The position numbers and the translations under genes were made by a program. A stretch of 64,000 nt of DNA from Candidatus Uhrbacteria bacterium (lineage in GTDB: Bacteria; Patescibacteriota; Patescibacteriia; JACQRZ01). Under the pieces are notes generated by a model, which made no database searches, was not told where the DNA came from, and saw only the letters and a list, made by a program, of their open reading frames with translations. The stretch lies in contig JACPHV010000002.1 in NCBI GenBank assembly GCA_016188385.1, positions 101,682 through 165,681 on the forward strand. Reading direction: 5' to 3'. Positions 2,932 through 57,967 of the stretch are shown here, piece after piece. Each line of letters opens with the position of its first letter. Position 1 is the stretch's first letter.

Positions 2932-2935
2932 ATGT

Positions 2936-6592: not shown

Positions 6593-6618
6593 CGTACTTT
6601 CATCTAACCAGTCATAGT

Positions 6619-6714
6619 ATGTCCAAAAAAAAGCAAAAAATTGTGTTTATCATTCTTGCGGTGATTGTCACCGCGAGCATGGTAATTACCTCCCTTACAA
6701 CTCCATTTTTTTAA
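6619..6714 (+). CDS. Putative 31-aa single-TM micropeptide (MSKKKQKIVFIILAVIVTASMVITSLTTPFF)
   Basis: A short ATG-initiated ORF with a Lys-rich N-terminus and one hydrophobic helix, in the lepA-recJ gap. No clear Shine-Dalgarno sequence. Confidence 0.2.
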   Translation: MSKKKQKIVFIILAVIVTASMVITSLTTPFF

Positions 6715-6724
6715 TTTGGCCGCT

Positions 6725-6904
6725 ATGCAGCCGCAAGCACAAGTATCGGCCACAGTTATCAAGCAGCCATGGGATGAAATTAGATCATTCTTTGGACTAT
6801 TCACGGATCCAATAAGCTATTCGAGTATAGCGGTTTTGGTCGGTACCGGTATTGCGCTTATGATAGTTTTTTTCATGATGAGATCGCGACATGGGAACAA
6901 ATGA
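6725..6904 (+). CDS. Putative small membrane protein (about 59 aa)
   Basis: A second small ORF with a C-terminal TM helix (IAVLVGTGIALMIVFFMM). The track calls it from TTG at 6716. It overlaps the recJ start by 14 nt. Confidence 0.2.
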   Translation: MQPQAQVSATVIKQPWDEIRSFFGLFTDPISYSSIAVLVGTGIALMIVFFMMRSRHGNK

Positions 6905-8624: not shown

Positions 8625-8631
8625 TACTACT

Positions 8632-9048
8632 ATGAAAGCATTAATCCACACGGATGGCGGAGCGCGAGGAAACCCGGGACCGGCTGGCATCGGGGGGGTT
8701 ATACTCGACTCAACCACCGGCAAAGAGATTGAATATTCTCAATATATAGGCATTGCAACTAATAATCAGGCAGAATATCGATCATTGCTGCACGCGTTGT
8801 TGATCGCGCAAAAGCTCAAAGCGCGATCCGTGATTTGTTATTTGGATAGCGAATTAATCGTTAAGCAGCTTAATGGAGAGTATCGCGTAAAAAATCGCAT
8901 TCTCGGTCAAATCTTTCACCAGGTAAGGGATCTCGCGACACTATTTGAATCTGCTCAATTTATTCACATAAGAAGGGAGTTGAACAAACACGCTGATCGT
9001 CTTGTAAATAGCGCCATTGACAGCCATATTCGCTTGACGGAAGCATAG
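8632..9048 (+). CDS. rnhA: Ribonuclease HI
   Basis: Has the TDGGARGNPGPAGIGGVI catalytic Asp region and ...NNQAEYRSLLHAL..., the RNase H1 fold signature. 138 aa. Confidence 0.8.
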   Translation: MKALIHTDGGARGNPGPAGIGGVILDSTTGKEIEYSQYIGIATNNQAEYRSLLHALLIAQKLKARSVICYLDSELIVKQLNGEYRVKNRILGQIFHQVRDLATLFESAQFIHIRRELNKHADRLVNSAIDSHIRLTEA

Positions 9049-9084
9049 TACTGCCTTATACTTTCTTTCATATTCTTTGACAAC

Positions 9085-9735
9085 ACGAAAATAGGCTGTG
9101 CGATCACCTTCGCTTTATGGCGTGGGAGGAAAGTCCGAACATCCCCTCCGTTTTTGACGGGGGGACAGGGTAGTCGCTAATGGCGACCTAGGCGTAATGC
9201 AGCGGTGCTGATTTGCGGATATGAAGCGTGCTTATTGGCACGTTGCAATTTCGGACAGCAAACTACTGCATGATGCTTACGGGAAAGTGTCCTATCTCCA
9301 AAATCGAGATAGGATTCCCCAGCAATTATATTGATGGGGAGCAACAGAAAAGTCTTTCTGAAACGAAGGACCTCTCGAGGAAGATTCGAGAAGGAAGATA
9401 CCGCCCCGATCCGGGGTAAGGGTGAAATGGTGTGGAAGCTCAATCAAGAGCTGATCATGGAATACGATTATTTGTCAACAAGACATACATGGTTTCGATT
9501 CGCTTTGTTCTTCTGTTCTTTTATATACGATCGGTACCTGATTTGTGTTGACCGTATCTATGGGTAAGAGCGCACCAGAGCCGGAGTGATTCGGCTGCTT
9601 GGCAAACACCTACCTGATGCAAGAGCTCAATACGCTCGCTTGAACCCCCTTGGGGATTACCTGATGACAGTAAAGTCGTCACGCTTTTCCCTAATCGGGC
9701 TAGAGAGATGACCGCAGCATGTATAATTCGGGAAG
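9085..9735 (+). ncRNA. rnpB: RNase P RNA (bacterial type, expanded helices)
   Basis: The universally conserved blocks occur in order: GGGAGGAAAGTCCGAAC (P4 5' strand), AAGGGTGAAATGGTGTGG, GGGTAAGAGCGCACCAG, GGCAAACACCTACCTGATGCAAGAGCTCAATA (compare E. coli GGUAAACUCCACCCGGAGCAAGGCCAAAUA), and AATCGGGCT (P4 3' strand that pairs with AGTCCGA). The ends are approximate. Confidence 0.7.
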
Positions 9736-9946
9736 TAATGAGCGTGATGGAAATTGAGTACCCCGAGTAAATATGATATCATTCCTTGTCATGTTGATTT
9801 GGATACTCAATTTATTACGTATGAACCCTTGAATGAACATGATACAGAATTCGGCTTATAGGCTCTATTTTCGTGTTGTGAGTGAGTAATTATATTTTGG
9901 TTTGAAATAAGCGTAGAGGTCAATAGAAGAAGCGTGGAAGTATTGT

Positions 9947-11362
9947 ATGAAAAAAAACGACCTGCTATTTGCGGCATTATTGGTGCCATTTGATTTTGTA
10001 TTTTTACTGGCAGCGGGATACGCTGCCTATTTTTTACGTTTTCAAGCGCTCACGGATCTTCAACCGGTAATCTATCAGATACCTCCGTCGATCTATACGA
10101 GCTACGCGATCGGCGTAGGCATATTTACAATCCTGATCTACGCACTATCAGGACTTTATCATTTTGGGCACGACCGCGTACAAAACGAAGTGTCAAAAAT
10201 TATTACTGCATGCTCCACGAGCTTCATGCTTGTCATTGTTTTTATTTTCTTTATTCAAGAATTATTCAGTTCGCGATTCATCATACTGGCTGCATGGCTC
10301 CTTGCTATCGCCTTTACGATCACAGGACGCCTTTTGTTGCGGATTTTTCGTCTTATCTTGTTCCGTTATTCAATTGGCTCGCAACGAGTCGCGATCATAG
10401 GATCCGATAAGCGTACGAAAGAATTTATCAGTGAAATAGAGCGACGTCTATGGCTCGGATATCGTCTCGCATTCCATGCGGAACGACTCACTGATGCGGT
10501 CTTTGAACGATTGCGACAAGTGGCCGCGCATGGTTCATTGGATGGGATAATTGTTATCGATGCAAATCTTGAATCGAATCAACTGCGAGCGCTCATCGAA
10601 TTTGCAGACATCCATCATGTAAGCATCAGGTATTCTGCGGATATGATCGGGGAAAAAAATATTGAGATATCAACTGTTCTTGGCGTCCCGCTTATTCATT
10701 TTAAGCGCACGCGGCTCCATGGGTGGGGTAGGATTATGAAGCGTTCTTTTGATATGCTTATCGGCTTAGTGTTGACAGCAGGATTCCTTCCGATTGCGTT
10801 TTTTGTCGCAATTGCCATAAGACTTGATTCTCCCGGGCCTATTATTTATCGAAATGTACGTGTTGGTCAGGATGGAAAGCTCTTTGATACCTATAAATTC
10901 AGATCAATGTTTCAACAGCATTGTACCGGCCCGCAGTACGATAAAGACGGCGCGGCTGAACAGTATCAAAGACGCCTGGTGCAGAATCGGAGCGTGCGTC
11001 ACGGACCTGTTTTCAAGGTATTGGATGATCCTAGAAGGACTCGTGTTGGACGATTTCTGGAGCGGACAAGTCTTGATGAGCTACCGCAATTCATTAACGT
11101 ATTGAAGGGCAATATGAGCCTCGTTGGACCACGGCCCCATATGCCGTCTGAAGTTGAAGGATATCGACGAGCGCATTATCAACTCTTTCGCGTTAAACCC
11201 GGCATAACTGGACTCGCGCAAATCAGCGGACGGAGCGATATTGATTTTGAGGATGAAGCACGTCTTGATATTTATTATCTGGAGCACTGGTCGCTCCTTC
11301 TCGATCTGGCTATACTGTTAAAAACTCCGTATGCGGTGCTCACACGCCGCTCTAACGTATAA
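9947..11362 (+). CDS. Undecaprenyl-phosphate hexose-1-phosphate transferase (bacterial sugar transferase, WbaP/CpsE-like)
   Basis: Five N-terminal TM helices, with the C-terminal bacterial sugar-transferase domain ([14 protein letters not shown]...[30 protein letters not shown]...[19 protein letters not shown]). Confidence 0.8.
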
Positions 11363-11373
11363 GTGCGTATGCA

Positions 11374-12525
11374 GTGTCAATTATGAAGATAGCATTAATA
11401 CATGATCATCTCGTGCAAATAGGCGGCGCTGAGCGCGTCTTGAAGGTATTTTCTGATTTATACCCTGATGCACCTATTTATACACTTATCTATGATGAAA
11501 GCCGGTTTCATGATTTTATCGACAGATCGAGAATACGTACTTCGTTTCTACAAAGCGTGCCTTTCAGCAAGTCTCGTTATCAATGGCTCTTACCTTTGAT
11601 GACAACCGCGACCGAGCTTCATGATCTTAGCAAATTCGATGTTGTACTCTCAAGTTCATCGGCATTTTCAAAAGGAGTGATCACAAAATCAACTACAATG
11701 CACATATGCTATTGCCATACCCCCACTCGGTACTTGTGGACAGACTCGCATGCGTACACAAATGATCTTAAGATACCCGGATTGATTAAAAAAGGGGTTC
11801 CTTTTTTGCTTTCTCAATTACGTTTATGGGATCAATTGGCTGCAAATCGCGTTGATCACTTTATCGCGAATTCAAAAACCGTCCAAGAACGAATTATGAA
11901 ATATTATCGAAGGACAAGCGATTCAATTTATCCGCCTGTTGCGCTTGATAAATTTTATATTTCCGAAAAGGTTGATAATTATTTTTTAGCGGGCGGCCGG
12001 CTTGTCTCATATAAAAAATTTGATATGATATGCGAGGCATTTAACAATCTGGGACTGCCGCTTAAAATATTCGGGATCGGTCCCGAACAACAAAAACTTA
12101 GAAGAATTTCCAGGAAAAAAAATATTGAGTTTCTCGGAGCCGTCACCGATGCACAGCGTGCTGATCTCTATAGTAAATGCATAGCGTATATTCACCCGCA
12201 AGAAGAAGATTTCGGAATTACCGCGATTGAAGCGATGGCTTCCGGCAGGCCGGTAATAGCGCTCGCCGCGGGCGGAGCTTTGGAAACGATTGTCGACGGG
12301 CTAACCGGTACATTTTTTTATGATCAAGATTGGCCCGCCCTCGCTGATGCCGTCATCCGTTTTGATGCCACGAAATATAATCCGGAAAAGATACGCCGCC
12401 ATGCGATGCAATTCAGTGTAGATAGATTTAAGAAAGAAATTACGGGATATGTTGATCGCGCGCTGGAACGCTGGCAGGATGTGCAACACATGAAACGTCT
12501 ACGGGAGACAAAACGGTTATTTTAA
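11374..12525 (+). CDS. Glycosyltransferase family 4 (retaining GT-B)
   Basis: The EX7E motif region EDFGITAIEAMASGRPVIA is typical of GT4/RfaG-like enzymes. It sits directly downstream of the priming sugar transferase. Confidence 0.8.
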   Translation: MSIMKIALIHDHLVQIGGAERVLKVFSDLYPDAPIYTLIYDESRFHDFIDRSRIRTSFLQSVPFSKSRYQWLLPLMTTATELHDLSKFDVVLSSSSAFSKGVITKSTTMHICYCHTPTRYLWTDSHAYTNDLKIPGLIKKGVPFLLSQLRLWDQLAANRVDHFIANSKTVQERIMKYYRRTSDSIYPPVALDKFYISEKVDNYFLAGGRLVSYKKFDMICEAFNNLGLPLKIFGIGPEQQKLRRISRKKNIEFLGAVTDAQRADLYSKCIAYIHPQEEDFGITAIEAMASGRPVIALAAGGALETIVDGLTGTFFYDQDWPALADAVIRFDATKYNPEKIRRHAMQFSVDRFKKEITGYVDRALERWQDVQHMKRLRETKRLF

Positions 12526-12543
12526 TATCCTAATGAAGAATCC

Positions 12544-12948
12544 ATGATTGCAGATCATTTGCTAGCTCATATCGGACAGTATATCTTATTAAAAAACAAA
12601 AGCGGACTACTATTATTGCGTAAGCTCCGCTCTGCCATTGCCTGGGGATTGCCCGGCGGCCGTATCGAAGAAGGGGAGAGCTGGGAGCAGGCTCTAGAAC
12701 GAGAAATAAAAGAAGAAACGGGCCTTACGATTACTGAACCGAAGCCGATCGCGGTGCATCTTATGCGTGAAGGCTCCATGATGAAATATTGCGTATATTT
12801 TAAGGCAGATGTTGTTGATGAAGCGCGGATGCTATTTGACAAAAAAACACATTCCTTGAAATGGGTTTCTTGCCAAGCGGCAGCCAATCTCGATTATGTT
12901 TCTTCTGATATGAAGGATATCATCCTTGGCTTTTTGAAGGAGACATAG
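12544..12948 (+). CDS. NUDIX hydrolase
   Basis: Nudix box GGRIEEGESWEQALEREIKEETGL (GX5EX7REUXEEXGU). Confidence 0.75.
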   Translation: MIADHLLAHIGQYILLKNKSGLLLLRKLRSAIAWGLPGGRIEEGESWEQALEREIKEETGLTITEPKPIAVHLMREGSMMKYCVYFKADVVDEARMLFDKKTHSLKWVSCQAAANLDYVSSDMKDIILGFLKET

Positions 12949-12958
12949 CACCGCTGTT

Positions 12959-13134
12959 ATTGAGACTGTAGAAAAATATCAGACGTAACTTTCTTCCGGC
13001 TCCTTTCGGCGCCGTTTGAGCCAAAAATGGCTTCTCACTCGTCGAAATACTCCAGTATTCCGACGAGTTGCGGCACTATTTTTGATCTCAAACGTCATCC
13101 AAAATGACCGGGAAGCTATTTTTCTACAGCCTCA
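12959..13134. repeat. TIR-bounded element of about 176 bp (MITE/REP-like), copy 1
   Basis: Left end ATTGAGACTGTAGAAAAATATCAG; right end GCTATTTTTCTACAGCCTCATT (17/20 inverted match). Internal conserved blocks are TTCTTCCGGCTCCTTTC and GAAATACTCCAGTATTCC. Homologous to 15222-15393 in inverted orientation. Confidence 0.6.
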
Positions 13135-13268
13135 TTTTGATATAAAAATCGTTCCATCTTGTCAAAGTAATTTCTAGATGCTCATACAAACACATTGATT
13201 GTGCGACACATGAAGGTCTTCATTATTTCATGGAAAACGAAAGGGGATACGATTAGAATGTATTTGAA

Positions 13269-14255
13269 TCAAGTCGTTTTACCTCCATGATGAAATTTTC
13301 TGTGAATATCACGCAAGCGTTTCGATGTAATATGGGTATAGACTTGAGTCGTCGCTATATTGCGATGTCCGAGAAACTCCTGAACAGTACGGAGATCAAC
13401 GCCCTGCGTGAGAAGATCTGTGGCAAAACTATGCCGTAGCGTATGTGGGGTCGCCAAAAAAGGAAGCCCTGCTTTTTTTGCATATTTTTGGACAATACCC
13501 TCAATTGCCCTCGTTGTAAGGCGTTTTGAGTCAGTTTGAGGGCCCTTGAACCTAATAAAGAGCGGTTCATAATCATCATTACGCGAAGATAGGTATGTTC
13601 TCACCCACATCAAAGCCTGCTGTGAAAAATACACTGTTCGCGTATATCCGCCCTTGCCAATAATACTCACTTCAAAATCCGGCGCATGAAGTACGCCCTC
13701 AAATTGCTTACGGTCGAGAGCCGCGAGTTCCGCAACACGAAGACCTGTGGAGAAGAGCGACTCTAGAATTGCTCTGTCACGAAGCCCTGCACTCGTTTTT
13801 GGATTAGCCATTTGGCAAAGTTTATCAACCTGCGTACCGTCAAGAAATTTAATCAGCCGTTCACGCCGCTCCTTTGGTAGTTTAATTTTTTCAGTCGGAA
13901 GCGATTCTATATCCCTTTCATGAAAAAATGCAAAAAACATCCTAAGCGCGATTAAATAACGGCTTTGCGTCGAGCTTGAGAGCGAGGGAGATAACTTTCT
14001 TGTTTTGTTTGGACGTCGCGCAAGCCATAATCGGTATTTCTGTATATGCTCCGCGGTAATTTCTCTTGGGGTAATCGTTGCAAGATTATTTAATTTCAAC
14101 CATGTAATAAATGATTTCAAGAATCTACCGTAATTCTTTATGGTATTTAATGATAATCCTTTTTCAACCTCGCTATATTCAAGAAAGTCAATATAATATG
14201 CGGGTGTTGGTTTTTGCATATATTCTACATATGAGAAAGACCCTATCGCTCTCAA
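13269..14255 (-). CDS. Tyrosine site-specific recombinase (XerC/XerD / phage-integrase family)
   Basis: C-terminal catalytic region HTLRHSFATDLLTQGVDLRTVQEFLGHRNIATTQVYTH (R..H..R..Y). The N-terminal SAM-like core-binding domain reads LSLNTIKNYGRFLKSF. The true start may be the internal Met (MQKPTPAYY) at about 14219. Confidence 0.8.
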   Translation of the reverse strand: MRAIGSFSYVEYMQKPTPAYYIDFLEYSEVEKGLSLNTIKNYGRFLKSFITWLKLNNLATITPREITAEHIQKYRLWLARRPNKTRKLSPSLSSSTQSRYLIALRMFFAFFHERDIESLPTEKIKLPKERRERLIKFLDGTQVDKLCQMANPKTSAGLRDRAILESLFSTGLRVAELAALDRKQFEGVLHAPDFEVSIIGKGGYTRTVYFSQQALMWVRTYLSSRNDDYEPLFIRFKGPQTDSKRLTTRAIEGIVQKYAKKAGLPFLATPHTLRHSFATDLLTQGVDLRTVQEFLGHRNIATTQVYTHITSKRLRDIHRKFHHGGKTT

Positions 14256-20241: not shown

Positions 20242-20636
20242 ATAGTGCGGGGCGGAGGTCAAGGACGTGCCGGTTGAGCTATGGACGGAACATGCGCTAG
20301 GCGCCGGATCATGGAGTGTGCCAAATAGCGATATAGGATGAATCCATCCTTGATTACTAGTATATTGCTATTGAAAAAAAACATCAAGGGATTTACTGAA
20401 CTATCCGCACATATGGTAACGAAAAGCCTATGCTTTTGGCCGCCTTCAAAGCCCTTCAGCGAAAAAAATCCTCATCGTATCTACGGATACGTTTGCGGTT
20501 TTTTTCGCCTCCAGGACTTTGATTCCGGCTCAAAATCATACATTTTTCTTGTTAACCCATGTATGGATAGTCAGTAAATGCTGGGGATATAGTGTGGACA
20601 GTTATTGACCTTGTCTTCCTGTGAGAATGGGATACA

Positions 20637-31258: not shown

Positions 31259-31464
31259 TGCGTCTTATTATGGTTGCTATAATTCATGTATTACGTATAA
31301 TACGCCTATTGATTATTGTGGGAGTCTTCCGCAATGTATCACTCGAGGCGGAGCATTGTGGCGGCACATGTATACAGTTCATTGCGGACGCTTAGCCTCT
31401 CTACGCGTAGCTTTCGAGTTGGAGCGTGTCGATAGTACGCACGCTTCGCCCTCGGAGATTTTTT

Positions 31465-31535
31465 CGGGCTGGAGTATGCCGGTAGTACGCACGCTTCGGG
31501 TGCGTGTAGACTGGGTTCAATTCCCAGCAGCCCGA
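31465..31535 (+). tRNA. tRNA-Pro (anticodon CGG)
   Basis: CGGGCTGGAGTATGCCGGTAGTACGCACGCTTCGGGTGCGTGTAGACTGGGTTCAATTCCCAGCAGCCCGA. The 7-bp acceptor is CGGGCTG/CAGCCCG, the D-stem GTAT/GTAC, and the anticodon stem CACGC/GCGTG with loop TTCGGGT (U33, G37). The T-arm is CTGGG-TTCAATT-CCCAG. G8 replaces the usual U8. Confidence 0.65.
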
Positions 31536-31716
31536 AAAAATCCCCGAGACAATTACATACGGACGAAGTCCGTGTAGACTGGGTTCAATTCCCAGCAGCC
31601 CGATGGGCGGCGAGTATTGATGAAAAAATATCCGTAGAACTGCCGAAGGCAATGTTTAGGCGGACAGGGAAACTATGTTTCTGCAGTCTCAACCTATACT
31701 ATACAAGTGATGCCAC

Positions 31717-37241: not shown

Positions 37242-37437
37242 CATTACGTAAGAGACCCATTTATTGACATTCACCAATTGCGTTAACAAGAAAAAATGTT
37301 TGATTTTGAGGCAGATCTGCAGCTCTGGAGGCGTAAAAAACCGCAGACGTACTATTAGTACGATGAGGATTTTTTGCGGCGAAGAGCAAGGAGCTGGTCA
37401 AAATCATAGGCTTTTTCGTTAAGGTAATTGGCGAATG

Positions 37438-45179: not shown

Positions 45180-47744
45180 TTATTTGCTGTAATCTGAATT
45201 TGTATCCGTGCCTGTAAAAGGGTCATCTGCTCCTGACTGCAAAGTACACTGCCGTCGAAGTTTTGATTGAGATAACAAAGGATATTCGTATACTCCGCAG
45301 AGTTCGTACTTATCCAATGAAGTATTTGAAGCAGGCGTATGGAGATACGTATAGGCGGAAAGTTTTTTTGACGCCAACACATTTTTTACATTATCCCCTC
45401 GATCCACGATCGGAGGAGTCGTCGTGCTTTGCGACGGATCAAGCGGCATGGAAGCGCGCAATGCTTTGCCAAGCTCTTGCGCCCACGAAGGCCAGCCGGA
45501 AATGGTCTGTCCCAATGTATAACTCCCCGCGGAAAGAGCCGGATAACAGGTTGGATTACATTTGCCGCGCACTCGATATTGTTCAAGTTGATCATGGATA
45601 AAGCTGATATGCGCTGATCGCTGCGTATCACGGCGCAACGCCGCGCTCGCGTCAGCATCATCTTGCGGTGTTGCCAGACGAATGGTACGCATCAACTCCG
45701 TAAAGACCGCGCGCGACGGTCCGGCAGGATTCGCGCTGGTGGTAAAATTCAAAATCCGATAGGAAGTAATTGATGAGTTAGTATCCAGGACAGGCACGCT
45801 TATATAGTATCCTGTCCCGTCTTGGACCGCTGGGAATCCATTCACTATGGTATTCGAAGGGCGTTGGTTAGGATTGAGCTCATTACGCGCATACCATACG
45901 TCAGGAGAGAACTTGTTCGGATTGCGATAAGCGCGCATAACAATTAAATCAGTTGAGTTGGTAAACCGATAAAAATACTCTTCGAGCGGAGTGGAGCTTC
46001 CTGCCGAGAATCGATCCTTGACTTCGGTCGGATCACTCATTAATGCGGGCAGTGTTAATCCCTTCTTTGCGACACAGTAGGAAAGCCGATATTGATATTT
46101 ACCGGACGGATCGGCTGCCGTACCCGGCGTCTCCCAGAATTGATAACAATCTTTAATAGTGCATTGGTCCGCGTGCCCTGACGCATAACATTGATCGGCT
46201 GTCCACGCCGAAGATGTGGGATCGCATTGCTCCCCGCTATCTACCTGTCCATTGCCGCATGTTTCATCCGGTGTTACGACAGGCGTTGAACCCGTTGGTT
46301 TGATTACATCATTCACGAGAATAATCTGTGCCTGCTGGACAGTGCCGGCAAGAGGCAAAACAAATACGGTAAGTATCGCGCTACCGGGTTGATTTGTATT
46401 TTCTACGATCAAATCTGTTTCCTTGCCTGCGGAACCGATTTTTTGCACTTCACGAAAAGCCGGGCTCTCGCTCAACTCCCATCGGACTTGTCTGATCTTA
46501 TCCGTCCCAATCAAAGAATTGTTTTGCGCGTGCACGCGGAGCGAATACCGATGCTGGTTGCCCGTACGGCTTCCTGATCCCTTGTCGCTATCGTCTTCAC
46601 AGTCATCTGCGGTGCAGGAAAATCTGTCGATATCTATCGGTCGACCGTTGCTGTCTATGATTACGTGTTCAAAGATATTAGGGCTGCCTTGTTTGTCCGG
46701 TCTGCCGACGCATTGTACCGGGTTTGAGCCGGTTATGGTACATGATTGGTATGGGTGTTTATTTCCAATCGAGAGCGAAGCGGATCCCGCTACGCCATCT
46801 ACCCACGCGGTAACGGTTCCTGTGCCCGTGGACGTTGCCGTATCGCCAAGCAGCGTTCGGATGTGAATTCGTTTTGCTCCTGATTCGTCTGACAGTCGGT
46901 ATCTATCCGGCTTGTCGACCTTCCAGCGCACAAGAGAATCCGAAATCGCAACAACATTCCCTTGCAAATCCTTTACTTCCAACTCAAGCGCGTGTTGATT
47001 GTTTTGATCATTACCCGAAGTAAAGGAATCGTCGCGGCACGCATTGCCGATACAGCCAAACATGTCACGAGGCAAGAATTGGCCGTTTGACCGTATCCGC
47101 ATCGAACGAACCTGGAGTATTGACAAGAGATTTTCTACTTTTATCTCCGCGCTGAACGTCTCGGATCCTTCGCCATCAAGATTAGCGGTTGTAACGATTG
47201 CTTTAAGTGTTACGGGCTGCGTGGTATTTACTCCGCTATTTGTCAAATACACTTCCGTAGAACTTGCGCCGAGATTTGTCGAATTATCAGAAGCGCGAGT
47301 GATGATAATCGGTGAATTTGCGGGCGAAAGACTCCACTCAATCTTCTCAATAGGGTGCACTCCCGCGATATCATCCAGAGAAATAAAGCTGTTATCCTTA
47401 TCATGCAGCCGGAGTGAATATATTCTTTGGTTGCCGATAAAACGCGAGCTTTGGTCATTGGCGCAAGTATTGCCAAAACAGCTGAACCTGTCCGTAGTCA
47501 CCGGCTTTCCATTCGCGTCGATCGCCGCTCTTCGCGTTGAGTCCGTAGATACAGCCGCATGCGGCCCTCCTGTACAAGACGAACGGCCGCCGGTCAAGCA
47601 GGTGGCTCGCGGATGCTTGTTGGATACGGTCATTTCTAGCGTTGTCGTACCAGTCGCGTTAGCAACCGAAAGTTTTAGCAGTCCTTCTCCTTCGGAATCG
47701 GCATTCGTAAGCTCAACGCTACGGCCGATCCCGGACAAACGCAT
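45180..47744 (-). CDS. C-terminal module block of the giant repeat protein (separate ORF owing to a frame break at about 47.72-47.78 kb; possible pseudogene fragment or assembly artefact)
   Basis: 854 aa. It has three copies of the FxC.GN.C.DD...GNQH module of about 110 aa and one CGNGQVDSGEQCDP Cys-rich unit. It is colinear with, and about 45% identical to, the region of the upstream giant ORF that follows the duplicated 175-bp patch. The residues just upstream of its Met in the same frame (ISWELTASADA) continue the homology. Confidence 0.55.
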   Translation of the reverse strand: MRLSGIGRSVELTNADSEGEGLLKLSVANATGTTTLEMTVSNKHPRATCLTGGRSSCTGGPHAAVSTDSTRRAAIDANGKPVTTDRFSCFGNTCANDQSSRFIGNQRIYSLRLHDKDNSFISLDDIAGVHPIEKIEWSLSPANSPIIITRASDNSTNLGASSTEVYLTNSGVNTTQPVTLKAIVTTANLDGEGSETFSAEIKVENLLSILQVRSMRIRSNGQFLPRDMFGCIGNACRDDSFTSGNDQNNQHALELEVKDLQGNVVAISDSLVRWKVDKPDRYRLSDESGAKRIHIRTLLGDTATSTGTGTVTAWVDGVAGSASLSIGNKHPYQSCTITGSNPVQCVGRPDKQGSPNIFEHVIIDSNGRPIDIDRFSCTADDCEDDSDKGSGSRTGNQHRYSLRVHAQNNSLIGTDKIRQVRWELSESPAFREVQKIGSAGKETDLIVENTNQPGSAILTVFVLPLAGTVQQAQIILVNDVIKPTGSTPVVTPDETCGNGQVDSGEQCDPTSSAWTADQCYASGHADQCTIKDCYQFWETPGTAADPSGKYQYRLSYCVAKKGLTLPALMSDPTEVKDRFSAGSSTPLEEYFYRFTNSTDLIVMRAYRNPNKFSPDVWYARNELNPNQRPSNTIVNGFPAVQDGTGYYISVPVLDTNSSITSYRILNFTTSANPAGPSRAVFTELMRTIRLATPQDDADASAALRRDTQRSAHISFIHDQLEQYRVRGKCNPTCYPALSAGSYTLGQTISGWPSWAQELGKALRASMPLDPSQSTTTPPIVDRGDNVKNVLASKKLSAYTYLHTPASNTSLDKYELCGVYEYPLLSQSKLRRQCTLQSGADDPFTGTDTNSDYSK

Positions 47745-50700
47745 GGCATCCGCACTCGCCGTAAGTTCCCAGGAAATCAGCTACGATGCGGTGCTGGTTG
47801 CCGGGCATGGCTGAACTCGCGTCATCAGCGCAGGAGTTACCGATACAGCCGAACGCGTCAGAAGGAAGATAGTCGCCGTTGGTGGAGAGTCGGATGGCGG
47901 AAATAGCGCGCGTTACCGGTGTGGGCTCTACCACATCTTGTTCCCCATCATTGTCATCATCGTCATCTTCCTCTCGTATTCTGTCGGCAAGCTCGGTATC
48001 GTTCACGAGCACGATTTCTGTCGTGCGCACCGGCCCTTGGACAGGAAGCACAGTCACCGTTAAAGTCGCGCTGCCGGGTTTATCAGTATTTTCAATCACT
48101 ACTCTTTCTCCCTTCGTGCCCATAACTCGAAGAGGCCGCGGACCAAACGCATTCGATGCGCTCAATGTCCACTCGATCCGCCTGATCTGATCAAGCGGTA
48201 ATAAACGATTGTTCTGCGCGTGCATGCGCGCGTCATACGTATGCTGGTTTGCGGCGCGTGCTTGTTCACGATCATCTTCACAGGAGTCGCCTCTGCATGA
48301 AAAGACATCGCGCGAAATGGGTCTGCCGTTTGAGTCGATTGTAATGGTGTCGAGTATATTCACATTTCCCTGTTTGTCCGGATGTCCAACACATTGCCTG
48401 TCAGTGCCCGTCCCGGTACATCTCTGATAGGGATGTTTGTTGTCCAGCGCGATAGACGCGATGGCGGAAATACCATCGACACGAGCAGTGATAATACCGG
48501 AGCCCGTGCTTGTCGCCGCATCATTGATCAATGCCGAAACGTTCACTCTGCTGGTGCCCTGTTCGCTGGATAGATCAAAGAGGTCTTTACGGTCAAGCGA
48601 CCAATGCACTTTTGCCTGATCAATCGAAAGAACGCGCCTACCATCGGTGACTACGAGCTCAAGCGCATGCTGATTGCCGGCTGATCCGGCGGCTCGGTCA
48701 TCTTCGCAGCTATTCCCGGTGCAGCCGAAAGCGTCTTGATTCAAAAACTGGCCGTTGGATTTGATTAGGATGTCTCTGACAAGAAATGTTTGCACCTGAT
48801 TAATGACCTGAATGGAAGCTGTAATCGGATTCCCTTTACCGGTCACGGGCGTGACAGTCGCTGAAAGGGTCGCGGATCCGTCAACTTCGGTATTGGTGAG
48901 AATAATATCGAAGTCTTTAGTCCCTTCCGGGTTGTTCCGTGACGGGTCAAGATCGCGAAATGCCTTTCGGGAAGATGAGGCGTGAATGAGAGACCATTCA
49001 ATCTTTGCTATGTTTGTCGGATCGGCAAAGCTGCGGTTTTTGTTGTGCAGGCGCAATGAATACACGCGCTGATTGCCGGAAGTACCGGCAACGCGGTCAT
49101 TGAGGCAGTTATTTCCAAAGCAGGTGAATACATCAGTCCCGAGCGGCCGATCATTCGCTTCGATTGCGGCTTCGGCGATTTCATCTGCTCTGCCAGCCTG
49201 ATCGGGCCCGCCGATGCAACCGGCACGATTCGCGGTGAGACATTCCCGACGAGGAAATTTGTTTACGATCGGAATCGCTTTTGTCACTGACGAGCCGGAA
49301 ACGGAGACTGTCAGCGTAGCGCTTCCCTGATCAGCCGTATTTGTGGCAAAAATTGTCTTGCCGGAATCGCGGGACAAGACGACTGTGCTTGTTGCGCCTG
49401 AAAGCGCCCAGGAAATCCGCTCATCGGGTACCGAAAGAGCTTTGCCATTCGCGTCGAAGAAATCAGCTACGATGCGGTGCTGGTTGCCGGGCATGGCTGA
49501 ACTCGCGTCATCAGCGCACGAATTACCGATACAGCCGAACGCGTCAGAAGGAAGATAGTCGCCGTTGGTGGAGAGTCGGATGGCGGAAATAGCGCGCGTT
49601 ACCGGTGTGGGCTCTACCACATCTTGTTCCTCATCATTGATATTCTCGAGTTGTATTGTCACTCGTACATTCTGCTGTACCGTTTCATTTTTCGATCCGG
49701 TCGCTTTAACCGTTACAGTCGAGGTGCCATTTTGATTTTTCGGAGTCACCTGTATTGTGGGGGTGGACAAGGAACTTAAATCAACCAGAGCGGTACTCGT
49801 AGCCGTGGGTCCGGACGCAAACCATTCGATCTTGACAGGAGAGACTTCGCTTCCTTCCGCCGAATACGCCTTGATACGATAGGTATGCTGATTACCGCTT
49901 CTGACGGTATCTTGATCACCGGAACATCCTGTAAGAGCAGCGCAAGTAAACAAATCGGTTGTGGAAGCGTTCAGGGCGGTATTGATGAATATCTCAACAG
50001 TTGCGATTTCGGCAATCTCCGCGACAGGCGTGACTGGACCAGCGGATTTTTGGATCCATACTGATTTCTTGCACTGTTCGCCAAACCAAGAATTGCCTTC
50101 TTTCATTTGTAAAATCAGATTGACACGGCCTTGCGCAAGGGGCGTATAGGGACGGACGCCGAATGTGACGCGTTCCCCGGGTGCGATGGATCGTGATAAC
50201 GGCACAACGTCAAGTTCGGGCACTCTCACGGTGCCTGACGAACGCAGAGCAAAGATATGTGTCGCGGGATTCCATGTCTTGGTGCCCGCATTCTTAAGCG
50301 AAAATTCCAACAGGAAATCTTTATGTTCGTCAGTGATAAGCGGCAGATTTTGAGCTCGGCACGCATTCGTGCACGCATTCGTGTCATCAGTATCTCCGTC
50401 GTCACATTCCTCCGATCCTTCTTTAATCCCATTTCCGCACACTCCTTTGTTCAGACGACAATCGGTGCGGCAACGATCCGTATTGGATCGATTACCATCG
50501 TCGCACTGTTCCCCAGTCTCCAGTTTACCGTTGCCGCAGTACGGCAATGCCGTGTCACGCAGCGTGCAATCGTTGCGACAAAGATTGGCGTCAATGCGGT
50601 CGCCGTCGTCGCACTGTTCCGTTCCTTCCTTGATGCCGTTGCCGCAATAACCGGTATTGAGCTTGCACGCACTCGTACACGCGTCTGTGTTATCGAGATT

Positions 50701-53700
50701 GCCGTCGTCGCATTCTTCGCCGATTTGCGGATCTACGTTTCCATTGCCGCACCATGAACCGCCGAGATTCGTATTGCACGCGTTTGTGCAAGCGTTGATG
50801 GTAACGCGATCGCCGTCGTCGCACTGCTCCCCTGCTTCAATTACGCCGTTGCCGCAGGTGCCGGCATTCGCGCGGCAAGAATTGGAACACGCATCGTCGT
50901 TGTTCGTATTACCATCGTCGCATTGTTCTGTGCGATCGCGGACTCCATTACCGCACGTACTCGTCGGACGCGTACATGTATTTGTACACCCATCGTTAGT
51001 AACGCGGTTGCCGTCGTCGCATTGTTCACCGGCATCAAGGATACCGTTGCCGCAATACCCTGCATCAAGGACGCAGTCCGAGCGACATCGCCCGTTATTG
51101 GGCGTATCGGAACCGTCGCACTCTTCACCAGCCTCTTGTTTACCGTTGCCGCAGTACGGCAGTGCCGTGTCACGCAGCGTGCAATCGTTGCGACAAAGAT
51201 TGGCGTCAATGCGGTCGCCGTCGTCGCATTGTTCATCACCTTCCCGCAAACCGTCGCCGCAGAAAGGCTGCGATGTCCGAATCGTACAGAGCGCGTCATT
51301 GGTAAACTGTGGCGCCAAATTGACGGATGCCATGCACATCTCGCCGATTGGCGTATCACCCTCCATCAATTGCCAATGCAATGGTTTGACCCCTGTCACG
51401 ACAGGCGCGATCAGTGATGTCGTAATTTCAAGAAACTCCCCCGGGGCGATTTTAGGTTTGGAAACAGGAATCGCGATCACGCTTTTTGACCAGAAAGTAT
51501 TATCTAAAGGTGACTGGGATCGGATACGATACGAGGGCGTGCCTGTCGCGTTCCATGTGTTCGTGCCTGTATTTTCCAATCGTATCCGCGCGGTAAATGA
51601 ATGGCCTGAATCAAACTCGCCAGGCGCTATCCGGATAGTCTGGGGAGCATTGATCGTACAGCGCGCATTATGCGCGCTCACTACTCGAAGAGTGCAGTTG
51701 TTTCTGCAAAGATCGGCATCAATGCGGTCGCCGTCGTCGCACTGCTCTCCGGTCTCCTGAATCCCATTGCCGCAAAAACCCGTGTTCGGCTTGCAGTCAT
51801 TGGCGCAAGCATTCGTATTGATCCGATCGCCGTCGTCGCACTGCTCTGTTCCTTCTTTGGCGCCGTTGCCGCAGACAGGCGTTTTTGAACTTCCTGAACA
51901 ATCATTTTTGCATGCGTTGCTGTTATCTGTATCTCCGTCATCGCATTGTTCAGCGGCCTCTACCTTCCCATTACCGCAGTATGGCAGTGCCGCGTCACGC
52001 AGCGTGCAATTGTTTTTGCACAGATTACCATCAATACGGTCGCCGTCGTCGCATTGTTCCGTTCCTTCTTTGGCGCCGTTGCCGCAGAATCCCGCGTTGC
52101 CGGTACAATCATTCTTACAGGCGTTGCTGTTATCAGGATCGCCGTCGTCGCATTGTTCCGTTCCTTCTTTGGCGCCGTTGCCGCAATAACCAGCGTTGCC
52201 GGTACAATCGTTGCGGCACGCATCCGTGTTCACAGCATTGCCGTCATCGCACTGTTCGCTCCCTTCAACGACGGAATTGCCGCACCGCGGACCTGTACGA
52301 TTCAGCGTGCAATCATTTAAGCATTCGTTGGTGTTGAGACGATCTCCGTCATCGCATTGTTCATTCCCTTCTTTCAAGCCGTTGCCGCAGAAACCGGATC
52401 GAGGCGTACAGCTATTCCGACAAGCGTTTGCATCGTTCGTATCCCCGTCATCGCACTGCTCCGTACCATCTTTAATGCCATTGCCGCAGAATCCCGGGTT
52501 GCCGGTACAGTCATTGCGGCAGGCATCGGTATGTGTTGAATTGCCGTCGTCGCACTGCTCCGGATCTTCTCGGACTCCATCGCGGCATACCGGCCCGCCG
52601 GGGGTATTCAACCGACAGTCATTGCGGCAGGCATTCGTATCAATAGTATCGCCGTCATCGCATTGTTCCCCGTCATTTTTAATGCCATTGCCGCAACCGG
52701 TAGGATTTGATGCGCAATCGTTGCGGCACGCGTCAGTATTGATTTGATTTTTGTCATCGCACTGCTCCGTGCCTTGTTTGATGCCGTCACCGCACTGCGG
52801 CGAAGGACCGCCCTTGATCGTACAATCGTTGCGGCACGCGTCAGTGTCATCTTTGTTGCCGTCATCGCATTGTTCCCCGGCATTGATAATCTTATTTCCG
52901 CACCCTTCCGGATTCGCTTTGCAAGAATTCGAGCATGCGTTTGCGTCGTTTGTGTCACCGTCGTCGCACTCCTCCCCCGCTTCCAATGTGCCGTTGCGAC
53001 AAAAACCCGCGTTGCCGGTACAATCGTTGCGGCACGCGTCAGTACTAATAGTGTTGCCGTCATCGCACTGCTCATAGAGGTCGCGAATTCCGTCGGTACA
53101 GATTGGACGATTTGTATTTATCGAACAATTATTATGGCAGGTATCATCATTGACCGCGTTGCCGTCATCGCACTGCTCCGTTCCTTCTTTTTTACCATTG
53201 CCGCATTGGTTCGCGTTTGAGCTGCATACATTACTGCAGCCGTTCTTGTCATCCTTATCACCGTCGTCGCATTGCTCGGCTCCTTCTTTCATTCCATTGC
53301 CGCAGAATCCTGGCTTGCCGGTACAGTCATTGCGGCAGGCATTTTCATTGTCTTTATCACCGTCGTCGCATTGCTCTCCGTAATCAACTTTGCCATTACC
53401 GCAAGTTGGCGGATTTGGATTTACGCTTTGACATTCGGGCCGAGTGGAGCAATCAGAACATGTGCAGGATTCATTTGCTTCGCATCTTCCGTTTGAATTA
53501 CATGACCCGCCGTTGCGCGGCGATATGACACGAATGTTCTTGACGCAACGCTCCCCGAACCAAGTATCTTTGTTACGCATTTGCCAAGCAAATGCGTAGG
53601 TACCTGCCGCGGCGGGCGCGGTTACTTGAGTTGAAACGCTGGAAGAGGTCTTAGCGTTTATTGAGGATGGCAATACAACAGATGTTCTTCCCCAAAGGGA

Positions 53701-56273
53701 GGTGTAGGGCGGCTGTTGGCTCGAAAGCACATAATCAGCCGAACTCCAGTTGGCAGTCCCTGTATTTTCAAGGCGCAATTGAGCTGAAAAAACTTGCCCG
53801 ATGGTAACTTCCGCGGGGACGGTGGCGCTACACCTTGCATTATCGGTCGGCAGCACGGAAATGACTACTTTAGCCTGACAGCTCTTCGTATCCGCGTTGC
53901 ACGCAAATCCTGTCTGGCAAGAACTTTGCTTCCCAAAACAATCAGCGCAGTTGCAGGACTCACTGCTGTCGCATATGCCGTTGGTATTGCATGAAGATGG
54001 CTTGCAGGAGGGATCCAAAGGACTGCGGCACTGCCCATCACCGCATTTCACAAGCCCCTCGGAACACCCGTCTTTAGCGTTCGGGTTCTTTTTCGCATTG
54101 GGGCACGCGGATCCCTCTTCGCATTTTGATGCCACCCCATTGCATGTCGTGCTGCTGCCAGTACATGTTGATTTGGGGCCGCTGCACGTAGATCCGGCCG
54201 TACAATTCGAACCTCCGCCTGTACACTGTGTCGCAATGCCTGAACAGCTCGAATCAATGCCAGTGCACCTCGCTCCGTTGGAACAGCGTGATTCACTGCC
54301 GGTACAGGTAGTGCCGGGATCGGAACACTGCGATTTGCTGCCGGTGCAGGTTGCGCCTTTCACGCACGAGGAACCATTGCCCTCGCATACGGTACCTGCT
54401 CCGGAACATGATGAATCAATTGCTTTGCATTGCGCGGTGTTTGAGCATTGTGAACCGACTGTTGTGCACGTTTGCTTTGCTTTGTCGCACACAGAAGGTT
54501 GTACGGTGCGTTTCGGCGGTTTGCCGACACATGCCGCGCCGGACTTGCATTCCGAGCCATCGCCAAGACATCGTGTCCCAAGCCCATCGCAGCGGGAATT
54601 GATACCCGCGCATTCAGCTCGATCGCGGCATTGGGATCCGCTGTTCGTGCATTGCGTCCCTGTTCCGATACACGTTGAACCGGTTCCCGTGCATGTGGCT
54701 CCATCAAGGCATTTTGAACCTGCTCCCGTACAGACTGTCCCTTTTCCGGAACAGATAGCCGTTCCGCCGATGCAGCGCGCGCCGTTGCTGCAGATATCAC
54801 CCTCTTTTTTACACGTCACGCCACGTGTAGAGCATGTATCTGAAACCGTGAGGGTGCATACCCCAAGCGATCCGTTCCCCGATACTGATTGGATGGAATC
54901 CCCGAGTACCACTCGATACGCCACCCTGGAAGCAAGCGGCTGACTTGGACGATACGCTACCTCTGTCTTTGCTGAATCGCCGCTTCCCACGGTAGCAATT
55001 TCTAAATCACCCGGCACTGCCGGCTCAATGCGAATATTTGGACGGACTGAATCCTCCTTCAACAGCTGATTAAATTTCACCCGGAATACGGAATTGCGAT
55101 ACACTCGCTCTGTTGGCTTGGGGATAATAGATTCTACGGAAACGCAGCGTTTTGATTGTCCGCATGTGCCGCCGACGCAATTGTTTGTTGAACACTCTCG
55201 ATCGTTACGGCAATCATCTCCAATTGATTTGTTTCCCGCAACGCATACGCCATCTTTGCACGTACCGGACGCGCATGCCGAATTGCCAGTGCATGCCTGG
55301 CCGATATCTTTGCCGGAAAGCGAGCACGCGCCCAACTCGCATACAAGACCCGTTCGACACTGCGCGTCAAATTCGCAAAAAGCATCAAGCCCGCCAGTGC
55401 CACGGACGCAAACGCCACCCTCGCACCGATTCGATGAGCACTGATCGTTCACTTCGCATTGTCCGCCAATATCATTTTTTTCTCCGGTAAAAAAATTCCA
55501 TGCGTATCGACACGCCACGACTTCCTGTCCGCATTGCCCGTCAGGACGGCAGGATCCATCAGAGCAGCATTGCTGACCAGCCCCGCAATTCTGCGCGGCG
55601 CAACGGGACGCGGATGTAAGATTGATGGGATTGCTTATCGTTCGAAAAGATGTGATTACTCGCAGCTTTGTCGGTGTCGCTTCGAGTGACGGCATCAATG
55701 CGGTAATTTTGTTCGCAGACCATTCATTTTCTCCGATCGGAATATCAACGGAACCGGCGACGAGCCTGCCCTTTTCATTGCCAAACCCGATTCCGTACAC
55801 GGTAAGCGCAAGTCCAGGCGGTCCGTTATCCGGCTCCATGCCGCAAATGCCCGGATTGGGAGCGGCGCCAGTCACGATAAAGGGGGTTGTGTTGCTTACG
55901 GTACCGTCCGCTGTTTTTACCGCCACCGTATAGCTGCCTTCGGAAATACCGCGTGGGACTTTCACGGCTACATACGAGTCGCGCCAATAGAGTTTTTTGC
56001 ACTCTCCGGAAAAATCAACATCCGCGGGAACTGATTGTCCGCTTTTGGTGAACAAAACTTCTCCGACGGCGTATCCAAAGCCGGAACCGTCGAGTGTGAC
56101 GTACTGCCCCTTTCCGCCTGACGCAGGCCATGCTTTCACGATTGTCGGCGCAGAATTGGCGTTCTGCGTATTCTGCTGTGCTGCGACGAAAGAAAACACC
56201 ACAATAAGAGCTAGCATGCTTGCGATGCCTGTGATACTGCCGATGAGGAGTGATATAATCTTGCGTTTCATAT
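47719..56273 (-). CDS. Giant (about 2,850 aa) secreted/membrane-anchored repeat protein: IPT/TIG-like N-terminal domains, multiple Cys-rich blocks including about 35 tandem Myxococcus-type cysteine-rich repeats, and Ig-like modules
   Basis: The start is set at MKRKIISLLIGSITGIASMLALIVVF (signal/anchor), 56271-56273; the track ORF extends to 56475. The central about 1,100 aa is tandem units of CGNG(I/A)KE(G/A)(T/G)EQCDDGD....N.C(R/K)NDC. The C-terminal third holds the FGC.GNSC.DD...GNQH modules. Confidence 0.7.
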
Positions 56274-56290
56274 CGTCAGGAACACGTGCG

Positions 56291-57967
56291 TTATGGACGC
56301 GGAGACGGACCAACACAGGGATTAAAGCAATTTTGAAAAACGTCTCGCGCTGATGCCCGCACTTCCGGTTGATAAAGGGTGTCCTTTTGCAATGGATCAT
56401 GTCGCAGACGCGCGCGCGTGCGCGTCGATGTCGCTGATTGTTCTGACTCAACCCAATAACTTCCATCAATACCAAGATAGATCGAACCCTGATGAAGAGA
56501 ATTCAGATCCATGTATTTTGAAAAAGTAATATCAATAGGCGTGCTCACGTCCACCTTCGTACTATCGCGCGAAGGACTGACAGATTCGATTGCCGGAGGC
56601 GTTGAATCAAGATTCTGCGTGATCGTGAACGACCAAACAAAATTATCAGCGGGCGGACCGTCTGCCTTATCATTGCGTTCGGATCCATTCCTGCCTCCGC
56701 CATCAAGAGAGTTGCCGGCCGCATCCGCGATTCCGTCATAAGGGTAGGATGCTCGATGCGGATTCTCGGCTGTGCGTTGATCCGCCAATGATGCAGCTCG
56801 TACCGATACTTGATATCTTCCGCCTTTCTCGGGAAAACAATATATGGACTCTCTACAGCTATTCGTTCCGCAGAGCTCGCGCGGTACGAACGTCACCGTA
56901 CGATATTGATTGCCGACAAGGATCGTGCCGGGTACTGATGCTCCGGTTTCAAGATTTTGCACCGATATTTTTTCACCGCTCACAAGCGATGGGTCGAGCG
57001 CTTCGGAAAAAGAAATTTGCACGAGCGCGTTGCGCGCAACAGTTGATTCTTGATCCGCATTCCCAATGGCAGGAAACACATGGGTGACACGCGGCGGATC
57101 ATTGTCAACAACTCCGCTCACCTGAAACTGCCAGGAATACCCGCCCGTGTTGCCAAAAAGTGACTCACCGTTTTTTGATAGGATAGCGCTGGTGAGAGAT
57201 ATGCCGTAAAGCGATTGCGTATCCGGCATCCCCAATAACTGTACTGGCGCGATCACTATTGATTTCTCATCGTCTGTAAGTGACACTTCTGCCAGAACCC
57301 CTTGGCCATCGGGAGTGGGAGTAGGAGAGATTTGATGAATCCGGACGCTTGCGGAAAGCAACGAACCGTCTTCTGAACGGACACTATGCGCACGGATGGA
57401 TTCTCTGAATGTGATAAGAATTTTAGCATTACGAGGAACATTTTTCTCGTCACGCGCCGGATAGTGCGATTCGATGCGGGATTGCCTGCTCTGATATTCA
57501 CCGAAATAGACCGGCTGCGAGATGTCTGTCGGGCTAAAAGTCGAAGGAGGCTGGGCAACATACGATTGCGCAAAACGCGAATAGATAAAGGTGATGGCAC
57601 CGAAAAGCACCAGCCCGATGACTGCGGTAAGCGTGCCAAGAATAAGAAATCGTTTTGCCGATGCCTCCTCGGCGAGATCTTCGTCCTCACGAGCTCTCCG
57701 CAAACGGACAAACCCGAATATGTCGAAAGCGATGCCGATTATCGTTGTGATGACCCATATAATTTGTAGCAAGCGCAAGACGATGAGTCGCGCGTCATTT
57801 GCCGGAAGGCCAAGCGCGCGCGCAAATCCAGTCGCTTCTTGCGCGTGCGCGATAAACGGTACTGCAAAAAAAATCACTGCGATAAGACACCCCTGCAAAA
57901 ATACGCGGGGCCAACGAGATGTGCGTTTTTTAATGCGCATCAGGAGCGCATGAGTGCTCAATGACAC
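56291..57967 (-). CDS. Hypothetical membrane protein with extracellular Ig-like domains
   Basis: N-terminal signal-like helix plus two further TM helices (IVLRLLQIIWVITTIIGIAF; FLILGTLTAVIGLVLFGAITFIY), then a beta-rich body. It ends 18 nt before the giant ORF start. Confidence 0.55.
   Translation of the reverse strand: MSLSTHALLMRIKKRTSRWPRVFLQGCLIAVIFFAVPFIAHAQEATGFARALGLPANDARLIVLRLLQIIWVITTIIGIAFDIFGFVRLRRAREDEDLAEEASAKRFLILGTLTAVIGLVLFGAITFIYSRFAQSYVAQPPSTFSPTDISQPVYFGEYQSRQSRIESHYPARDEKNVPRNAKILITFRESIRAHSVRSEDGSLLSASVRIHQISPTPTPDGQGVLAEVSLTDDEKSIVIAPVQLLGMPDTQSLYGISLTSAILSKNGESLFGNTGGYSWQFQVSGVVDNDPPRVTHVFPAIGNADQESTVARNALVQISFSEALDPSLVSGEKISVQNLETGASVPGTILVGNQYRTVTFVPRELCGTNSCRESIYCFPEKGGRYQVSVRAASLADQRTAENPHRASYPYDGIADAAGNSLDGGGRNGSERNDKADGPPADNFVWSFTITQNLDSTPPAIESVSPSRDSTKVDVSTPIDITFSKYMDLNSLHQGSIYLGIDGSYWVESEQSATSTRTRARLRHDPLQKDTLYQPEVRASARDVFQNCFNPCVGPSPRP

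Follow-up and report, generated by a model that had tools for sequence, protein, structure and literature searches.

A 47-nt deletion beside a putative gene-conversion tract probably interrupts a giant surface-protein gene of a groundwater Candidatus Uhrbacteria bacterium

Gene organization of the locus

The stretch analyzed here, hereafter the window, comprises 64,000 nucleotides (nt) of contig JACPHV010000002.1 (assembly GCA_016188385.1, positions 101,682 to 165,681), from an uncultured groundwater bacterium of Candidatus Uhrbacteria, a member of the Candidate Phyla Radiation (CPR). Two overlapping open reading frames (ORFs) of its minus strand, annotated as independent proteins, appear to be the halves of one giant surface-protein gene, which lies entirely on this strand and was probably broken by a 47-nt deletion at the edge of a 181-nt patch shared almost identically with an internal repeat of the same gene. 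The two ORFs and the tail that separates their frames are the following:

47719..56271, minus strand: upstream ORF, 2,850 amino acids (aa), NCBI MBI2483708.1, annotated as 'DUF4215 domain-containing protein'
45180..47744, minus strand: downstream ORF, 854 aa, identical to NCBI MBI2483707.1 (HYV71_00800)
47719..47772, minus strand: out-of-frame tail of the upstream ORF, LGTYGECGCHAFVRDRP followed by TAG, sharing 26 nt with the start of the 854-aa ORF

The mechanical call of the upstream ORF spanned 47719-56475, and its true start was placed at the ATG at 56271, yielding a 2,850-aa product identical to MBI2483708.1. This product opens with a signal or anchor sequence (MKRKIISLLIGSITGIASMLALIVVFSFVAA), continues with cysteine-rich regions, DUF4215 repeats, N_BRCA1_IG-like domains and the immunoglobulin (Ig)-like modules a, b, c, d and e, and ends with the first half of a further module, b′, plus 17 out-of-frame residues. 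The Pfam search retrieved PF13948 (DUF4215) in 11 stretches with 135.6 bits against a cut-off of 27, together with three N_BRCA1_IG matches and one Big_5 match, and by this threshold the upstream product is a DUF4215 giant surface protein.

The 854-aa ORF carries the remainder of b′, the modules c′, d′ and e′, one DUF4215-like repeat and a conserved C-terminal domain, and the Pfam search returned nothing for it. Its frame, +1 relative to that of the upstream ORF, is open from position 47780, right after a TAG at 47781-47783, and contains no further stops or frameshifts. The protein begins inside a module, with neither a signal peptide nor a hydrophobic N-terminus. Its C-terminal domain, of about 300 aa (window 45183-46307, minus strand), is an uncharacterized conserved domain of large CPR-type surface proteins: 576 related proteins were found at E ≤ 1e-3, mostly matching query residues ~530-780, and the domain was placed mostly at the C-termini of 1,500-3,000-aa proteins or just behind the N-terminus of shorter ones, with no sequence match in Pfam, NCBIfam or PDB. 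The 854-aa protein had no exact match in the contig index, and two homologue searches by word index retrieved nothing beyond its own NCBI entry, repetitive words having probably filled the candidate list.

No promoter-like box was seen upstream of the 854-aa ORF start, and the hits of a promoter and terminator scan were no more numerous than in shuffled sequence. Regarding gene starts in general, the 25 nt upstream of those examined in the window contained no Shine-Dalgarno motif, and in several of them a TATACT/TATAAT-like box lies near the ATG, so that the transcripts of this genome may have short leaders or none. Since the genome lacks a Shine-Dalgarno pattern, translation start signals are uninformative for the 854-aa ORF. 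The antisense ORFs 47044-47814 and 47879-48190 were considered as genes and discarded, with no family match, and an Rfam search of the region 45-51 kb gave no match.

A single ancestral gene

Past the break, the +1 frame reads ISWELTASADAMRLSG..., matching the ISWALSGATS... of the internal copy of the repeat, and the modules c′, d′ and e′ then follow in order. A protein-guided scan of GTDB species genomes recovered the orthologue in the Candidatus Uhrbacteria metagenome-assembled genome (MAG) 'NC_groundwater_1374_Ag' (JACQSB010000019.1, hereafter L002), in which a single ORF of 3,216 aa (3653-13303) is colinear, in one frame, with residues 1-2758 of the upstream ORF (69%) and residues 1-833 of the 854-aa ORF (69%). 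Ten flanking genes on both sides were syntenic between L002 and the window, with 49-94% identity. In a more distant relative (GCA_964556905.1, hereafter L001) the orthologue is also continuous, its apparent frame change corresponding to a run of Ns (a scaffold gap) inside a PTTGTTT linker repeat, and the window, L002 and L001 share a downstream neighborhood of YbeY, FtsA, FtsZ, ScpB and TIM. Moreover, an exhaustive HMMER search revealed two distant homologues, P0004 (1,901 aa) and P0006 (4,255 aa), in each of which a single chain bears the N-terminal region of the upstream ORF together with the C-terminal domain of the 854-aa ORF. Because of this internal colinearity, the intact and syntenic L002 orthologue and the distant homologues bearing both termini, the upstream and 854-aa ORFs are taken as two halves of one gene; the same lines of evidence bear out the proposal of the earlier sequence-only reading of this stretch, which took the 854-aa ORF for the out-of-frame continuation of a gene of ~3,700 aa.

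Within positions 1-4600 of the L001 MAG, the gene calls omit the orthologue's 5′ part (12-4316 in frame 3) and give short antisense ORFs in its place. The annotated 1,730-aa L001 protein, P0002, starts inside a module owing to the run of Ns; it was considered as a second, independent split within a b-type module and was set aside as a gene-calling effect of the scaffold Ns.

Tandem cassettes and the near-identical patch

In the C-terminal third of the gene, two cassettes of four modules each, b-c-d-e and b′-c′-d′-e′, follow one another in tandem with a period of 1,686 nt, and each contains one copy of the patch:

47998..49602, minus strand: cassette 1, Ig-like modules b, c, d and e
46308..47916, minus strand: cassette 2, modules b′ (broken), c′, d′ and e′; orthologue of the single cassette of L002
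49459..49639, minus strand: internal patch copy, linker NDEEQDVVEPTP plus the first half of module b; probably the recipient of conversion
47773..47953, minus strand: terminal patch copy, linker NDGEQDVVEPTP plus the first half of module b′

The Ig-like modules gave no Pfam or NCBIfam match at threshold. An AlphaFold (AF2) model of module b, built from eight paralogous modules and with a predicted local distance difference test score (pLDDT) of 83, was an all-beta structure with a beta-sandwich, for which Foldseek returned weak matches (E ~1e-3, template modelling score 0.5-0.66) to the S-layer protein SbsC, to LigA/LigB and to the Ig-like domain of the lambda tail tube. Compared module by module, the two cassettes share 31-56% aa identity, and the L002 cassette is 59-81% identical to cassette 2 versus 38-60% to cassette 1.

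Within this diverged background, the two patch copies are identical at 178 of 181 nt (98.3%), as determined by ungapped comparison and self-BLAST, and constitute the strongest repeat of the entire window. They are spaced by 1686 nt, i.e. 562 codons, and their longest exact run is 109 nt; the repeat finder placed the patch at 47773-47962 versus 49459-49648, with 96% identity over 190 nt. The three mismatches are a G/A difference at 47945, which exchanges Gly and Glu in the linker 9 nt from the 5′ edge, and two adjacent ones at 47836 and 47833, both synonymous and within the GNSC motif. Given a background identity of ~0.55, the probability of at least 178 identities in 181 positions is ~5e-42, and a chance origin of the patch is thus excluded. 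In the codon alignment of the cassettes, nucleotide identity inside the patch was 98-99% and third-position identity 0.93-0.97, versus 42-64% and 23-56%, respectively, in the 30-codon windows outside it, where aa identity was 29-69%. Beyond the patch the cassettes share ~50% DNA identity, with third codon positions saturated, and such diverged cassettes bearing a near-identical patch indicate that the duplication is old and the patch recent.

After the patch, the internal copy continues as ...NQHRIVADF|FDANGKALSVPDERISWALSG, while the terminal copy reads ...NQHRIVADF|LGTYGECGCHAFVRDRP* and its +1 frame ISWELTASADAMRLSGIG.... The sequence-only reading had quoted these continuations, which proved exact on translation, and had described a pair of patches with about three mismatches amid much more diverged repeats, a description that agrees with the counts and module identities given above.

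Copying within this gene seems not to be confined to the cassettes. In its DUF4215 array, where neighboring repeats are 60-80% identical, the stretches 50499-50619 and 51114-51234 (121 nt) and the stretches 52040-52110 and 52139-52209 (71 nt) are each 94% identical, a pattern suggestive of repeated copying from one repeat to another. The linker ahead of module b differs among the three genomes: it is acidic in the window, L001 has a PTTGTTT repeat there, and L002 a perfect 99-nt tandem duplication (10352-10553; 33 aa, CSAGQSKPHKEFVNGSCQDVNTCGTNASSCG...); these differences point to a very fast turnover of the linker.

Direction of the conversion

The two orthologues allowed the patch to be assigned to one of the cassettes. 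Over the first half of the b module, the patch sided with L002 over L001 at 9 versus 2 aa sites and at 27 versus 11 nt sites (p = 0.007), and the remainder of cassette 1 was not closer to L002. Farther along the internal module b, the sequence is of the L001 type, with 4 versus 14 sites in codons 76-90 and 1 versus 14 in codons 121-135 (L002 versus L001). In the 47-nt stretch of b that has no counterpart in b′, described below, 10 versus 5 sites pointed to L002, a difference that is not significant and that fits a tract originally reaching into the part later deleted from b′.

Near-identity that includes synonymous sites, together with this phylogenetic discordance, argues that the shared patch is the product of recent intragenic gene conversion, in accordance with the conversion between repeat units raised in the sequence-only reading. 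Since the patch sides with the orthologue of the downstream cassette, its sequence would most probably be native to b′, and the internal b would have been overwritten.

The 47-nt deletion

The DNA alignment revealed a gap of exactly 47 nt in b′, where the paralogue b and both L002 and L001 have a stretch of equal length, with the flanks remaining in register. The sites involved are the following:

49412..49458, minus strand: the 47-nt stretch in internal module b, TTCGAC...GAGCGGATTTC, whose last six bases are the second GATTTC
47773..47778, minus strand: the single GATTTC retained at the junction, gctGATTTC|CTGGGaa, where the frame changes

In module b, GATTTC occurs both before the 47-nt stretch and at its end, and in b′ a single GATTTC is followed by CTGGG. 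In L002 the corresponding hexamer sites are GAGTTT and GATATT, and the undeleted sequence of b′ was deduced from the paralogue. At the junction, ...GTAGCTGATTTC is directly joined to CTGGGAACTTACGG with the 47 nt absent between them, giving GCTGATTTCCTGGGAAC as the junction-spanning sequence; the deletion allele reads GTAGCTGATTTCCTGGGAACTTACGG. The gap begins where the identity between the patch copies ends, so that the break does lie at the edge of the duplicated patch, as had been noticed from the sequence; the frameshift described there also stood, and the accompanying loss of 'about 14 codons' was refined to 47 nt, that is, 15 codons plus 2 nt.

When the 47 nt were added back at 47773|47772, one ORF of 11,139 nt and 3,712 aa was obtained. 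The removal of a single base also restored one ORF, of 3,696 aa, without 16 residues of the module core. These residues, 49-64 of the module, correspond in the module b model to the end of the strand 41-49, a loop and the start of the strand 63-68. From NQH to the invariant Trp, the eight other modules and the two orthologues have a spacing of 20-29 aa, which would be 6 aa in b′ after the one-base removal. Since a one-base fix leaves this 16-residue hole, the lesion is more than a one-base consensus error and would be a true deletion in the module core. The sequence-only reading had taken a single-base correction that restores one ORF as the mark of a sequencing error; such a correction exists, and it leaves 16 core residues missing. 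Searches of the JGI (Joint Genome Institute) metagenome contigs found no match for an exact 27-mer just downstream of the junction and no relative by a protein-guided scan.

Proposed course of events

Taken together, these results favor, with a probability that we put at roughly 70%, a giant surface-protein gene that underwent a recent conversion and subsequently a truncating, pseudogenizing 47-nt deletion. Both ORFs would derive from one gene for a secreted or anchored giant surface protein, of 3,712 aa if restored, whose C-terminal third would have arisen by an old tandem duplication of the four-module Ig-like cassette. In a first step, intragenic gene conversion, or a template switch, would have homogenized 181 nt covering the end of the linker and the first half of the first module, most probably with b′ as the donor and the internal b as the recipient. 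In a second step, the donor copy itself would have been hit, b′ losing 47 nt between the short direct repeats GATTTC/ATTTC, a classical mark of replication slippage or of microhomology-mediated end joining. The number 47 not being divisible by three, the frame shifts and a stop is met 17 codons later; the outcome would be a 2,850-aa protein that retains its export signal at the N-terminus and 854 codons stranded in the +1 frame without one. The C-terminal cassette and the conserved C-terminal domain would most likely be lost from the surface protein, and the absence of secondary damage in the 854-aa ORF implies that the break is recent. Among the causes put forward in the sequence-only reading, a genuine gene-breaking deletion is the best supported.

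Some points weigh against this two-step account. The direction of conversion relies on 38 diagnostic sites and on two outgroup sequences only, and the second direct repeat in b′ was reconstructed from paralogue b and the retained ATTTCCTGG. An intact 854-aa ORF may reflect a very recent break, and equally an ORF still in use or a break that is not real; the deletion allele might represent a minor variant of the population or an infrequent artefact. Finally, were the two events independent, the end of the tract would fall within a random 47-nt deletion of this 11-kb gene with a probability of only ~0.5-2% by our estimate, a coincidence that hints at a linked mechanism, which the two-step account does not supply. 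The coincidence between the start of the deletion and the end of visible identity is partly forced, because identity is not visible across the deleted stretch, and the conversion tract may simply have ended inside a stretch later lost by slippage between the GATTTC/ATTTC repeats. Otherwise, aberrant resolution at the homology boundary may link the two events, repair or template switching between the near-identical copies having run past the homology and re-annealed out of register. The two-step reading is ranked first, and a link between its events is kept open.

Alternative explanations

A single event in the opposite direction would supply that link. According to it, a break or stalled fork in b′ would have been repaired from b, with a return out of register at the ATTTC microhomology, so that the deletion would start exactly at the end of the identical tract without any coincidence. 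Both tract ends bear microhomology (CAATGATG at one and GATTTC at the other), and long homology on which classical recombination could act is lacking between cassettes only ~50% identical. This one-step model, with b as donor, b′ as recipient and the deletion as repair scar, was the one initially favored, and it was demoted when the L002 orthologue showed the patch to be of the b′ type: L002 is favored at 27 versus 11 nt and 9 versus 2 aa sites in the patch and not in the rest of cassette 1. The patch type must then have reached b earlier, by a conversion in the other direction, and the single event is held to be unlikely.

Only slightly less likely again is an artefact of assembly or consensus, in which the real genome would have an intact b′, with the 47 nt present or with one base fewer, and the contig would be in error because of the 181-nt repeat. 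In its favor, the lesion directly adjoins the strongest repeat of the window, the 854-aa ORF is otherwise perfectly intact and the deletion of one base restores a single ORF. The properties of the junction are difficult to reconcile with it. In de Bruijn assembly, each k-mer of a contig must occur in the reads or in earlier contigs, and a misjoin needs k-1 (at least 20) shared bases; the junction shares only 6-11 nt and the other patch edge 8 nt, so that a repeat-driven shortcut would be impossible at k ≥ 21 and an artefact is unlikely. The top k values of MEGAHIT by default are 119 and 141, both above the 109 nt of the longest exact match between the patch copies, which remain separable by their three mismatches; these argue for two real loci and not for one read set placed twice. 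Illumina indel errors are rare outside homopolymers; Ns are absent from the window, and no homopolymer of at least four bases lies near the junction. The hole of 16 residues left by the one-base fix falls in a module that keeps its spacing in 10 of 10 relatives, and it also stands against a miscall. The patch does exceed the 150-nt read length used in the study of the related L002 MAG, which was obtained from 150-bp paired Illumina reads assembled with MEGAHIT 1.2.9 at its defaults and scaffolded with IDBA-UD (He et al. 2021, PMC7906910). That the window genome was assembled in the same way is deduced from its accession style and naming, which point to the same project as L002, the assembly with MBI2483707.1 probably being part of BioProject PRJNA640378, and this dependence counts against our preferred account.

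A functional two-gene arrangement, with the 854-aa ORF expressed as a separate protein from the ATG at 47744, is very improbable. NCBI annotates this ORF as an ordinary coding sequence, its 854 codons are intact and the 26-nt overlap with the upstream stop could permit coupled re-initiation. However, it would start in the middle of an Ig-like module and without a signal peptide, when all homologous domains lie in exported proteins; neither a promoter-like box nor the –10-like box that precedes several other genes of the window is found near its start, and the orthologue is fused.

A phase-variable or programmed switch, by which a reversible state or ribosomal frameshifting would control the display of the C-terminal third, was also considered; the phase-variable form had been raised in the sequence-only reading. 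Large surface proteins of probable episymbionts, as this one would be, belong to a gene class that is often variable, the internal module b is intact and might in principle serve as a repair template, and a 62-nt overlap window (47719-47780) exists where a +1 shift would fuse the frames. Nevertheless, positions 47700-47800 contain no simple-sequence repeat (SSR) and no run of at least four identical bases, the repeat search having found the 181-nt patch only, and a 47-nt deletion cannot revert by slippage. Direct reading of the 62-nt overlap identified no known +1 slippery site, no Rfam element was found, and L002 has one uninterrupted ORF, so that the break is not conserved; even a bypass of the frame would leave module b′ without its core residues. 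Such a switch is therefore most improbable.

Just as remote is a system of templated variation, in which the diverged cassettes would serve recurrent copying of the first module, altering the exposed part of the giant surface protein of an episymbiont, and the C-terminal third would be turned off when resolution at the edge of homology fell out of register, and on again by copy-back from the intact internal module: the one recent tract, the second conversion-like patch in the DUF4215 array and the rapid linker turnover in relatives are compatible with it, and nothing was found that points to reversibility or dedicated machinery.

Comparison with known systems

Concerted evolution between tandem repeat modules occurs in surface proteins such as the alpha C/Rib family and the M proteins. 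The present patch resembles such intragenic conversion in being a short near-identical tract, including synonymous sites, with sharp boundaries and phylogenetic discordance with its flanks. It differs in that the repeats are here only ~50% identical and the tract ends in microhomologies of 6-8 nt, and in belonging to a CPR host and to a module family without a Pfam model.

Spontaneous deletions between short direct repeats, by replication slippage or end joining at microhomologies, are part of the classical deletion spectrum of E. coli lacI. Like these, the b′ deletion is small (47 nt) and causes a frameshift, and it would have its endpoints in a direct repeat of 5-6 nt of which one copy is kept; unlike these, its pre-deletion sequence was deduced from a paralogue and an orthologue, and it abuts a conversion tract, which hints at a link between the two.

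In its domain order (signal or anchor, IPT-like region, cysteine-rich region, DUF4215 array, Ig-like modules and conserved C-terminal domain), the window gene matches other giant DUF4215/Ig-like proteins of Parcubacteria/CPR, namely the L002 ORF, P0002, P0004, P0005 and P0006, although it has two cassettes and a frameshift where L002 and L001 have one cassette each. Two overlapping ORFs that make up one protein are also seen in contingency loci with SSR phase variation and in the programmed frameshift genes prfB and dnaX. In contrast to those, the window gene presents no repeat tract, slippery site or stimulatory element, its break is not conserved and its module stays defective even if the frame is bypassed.

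For annotation purposes, MBI2483708.1 and MBI2483707.1 would be better described as one disrupted gene of ~3,712 aa than as two proteins, the 854-aa 'hypothetical protein' being the stranded C-terminal third of that gene. The kind of event is ordinary and the organism is unusual. The locus offers a clean and datable CPR case of copying between ~50%-identical repeats with microhomology at the tract ends, combined with a probable short-direct-repeat deletion, which is of minor interest for the evolution of giant repetitive surface genes in reduced genomes and opens no new question.

Other features of the window

Two copies of a non-coding element of ~165 nt, 77% identical and in inverted orientation, are located at 20417-20580 (plus strand) and 37258-37421 (minus strand), each adjoining a tRNA gene. 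No Rfam match was obtained for them, and both conserve a hairpin-plus-T-run, AAAAAATCCTCATCGTA...TACGT.TGCGGTTTTTT. In addition, the gene for tRNA-Pro(CGG) at 31464-31536 is followed, after 32 nt, by a 36-nt copy of its 3′ end (31568-31603, 35 of 36 identical), a pattern typical of the attachment-site remnant of an integrated or excised element.

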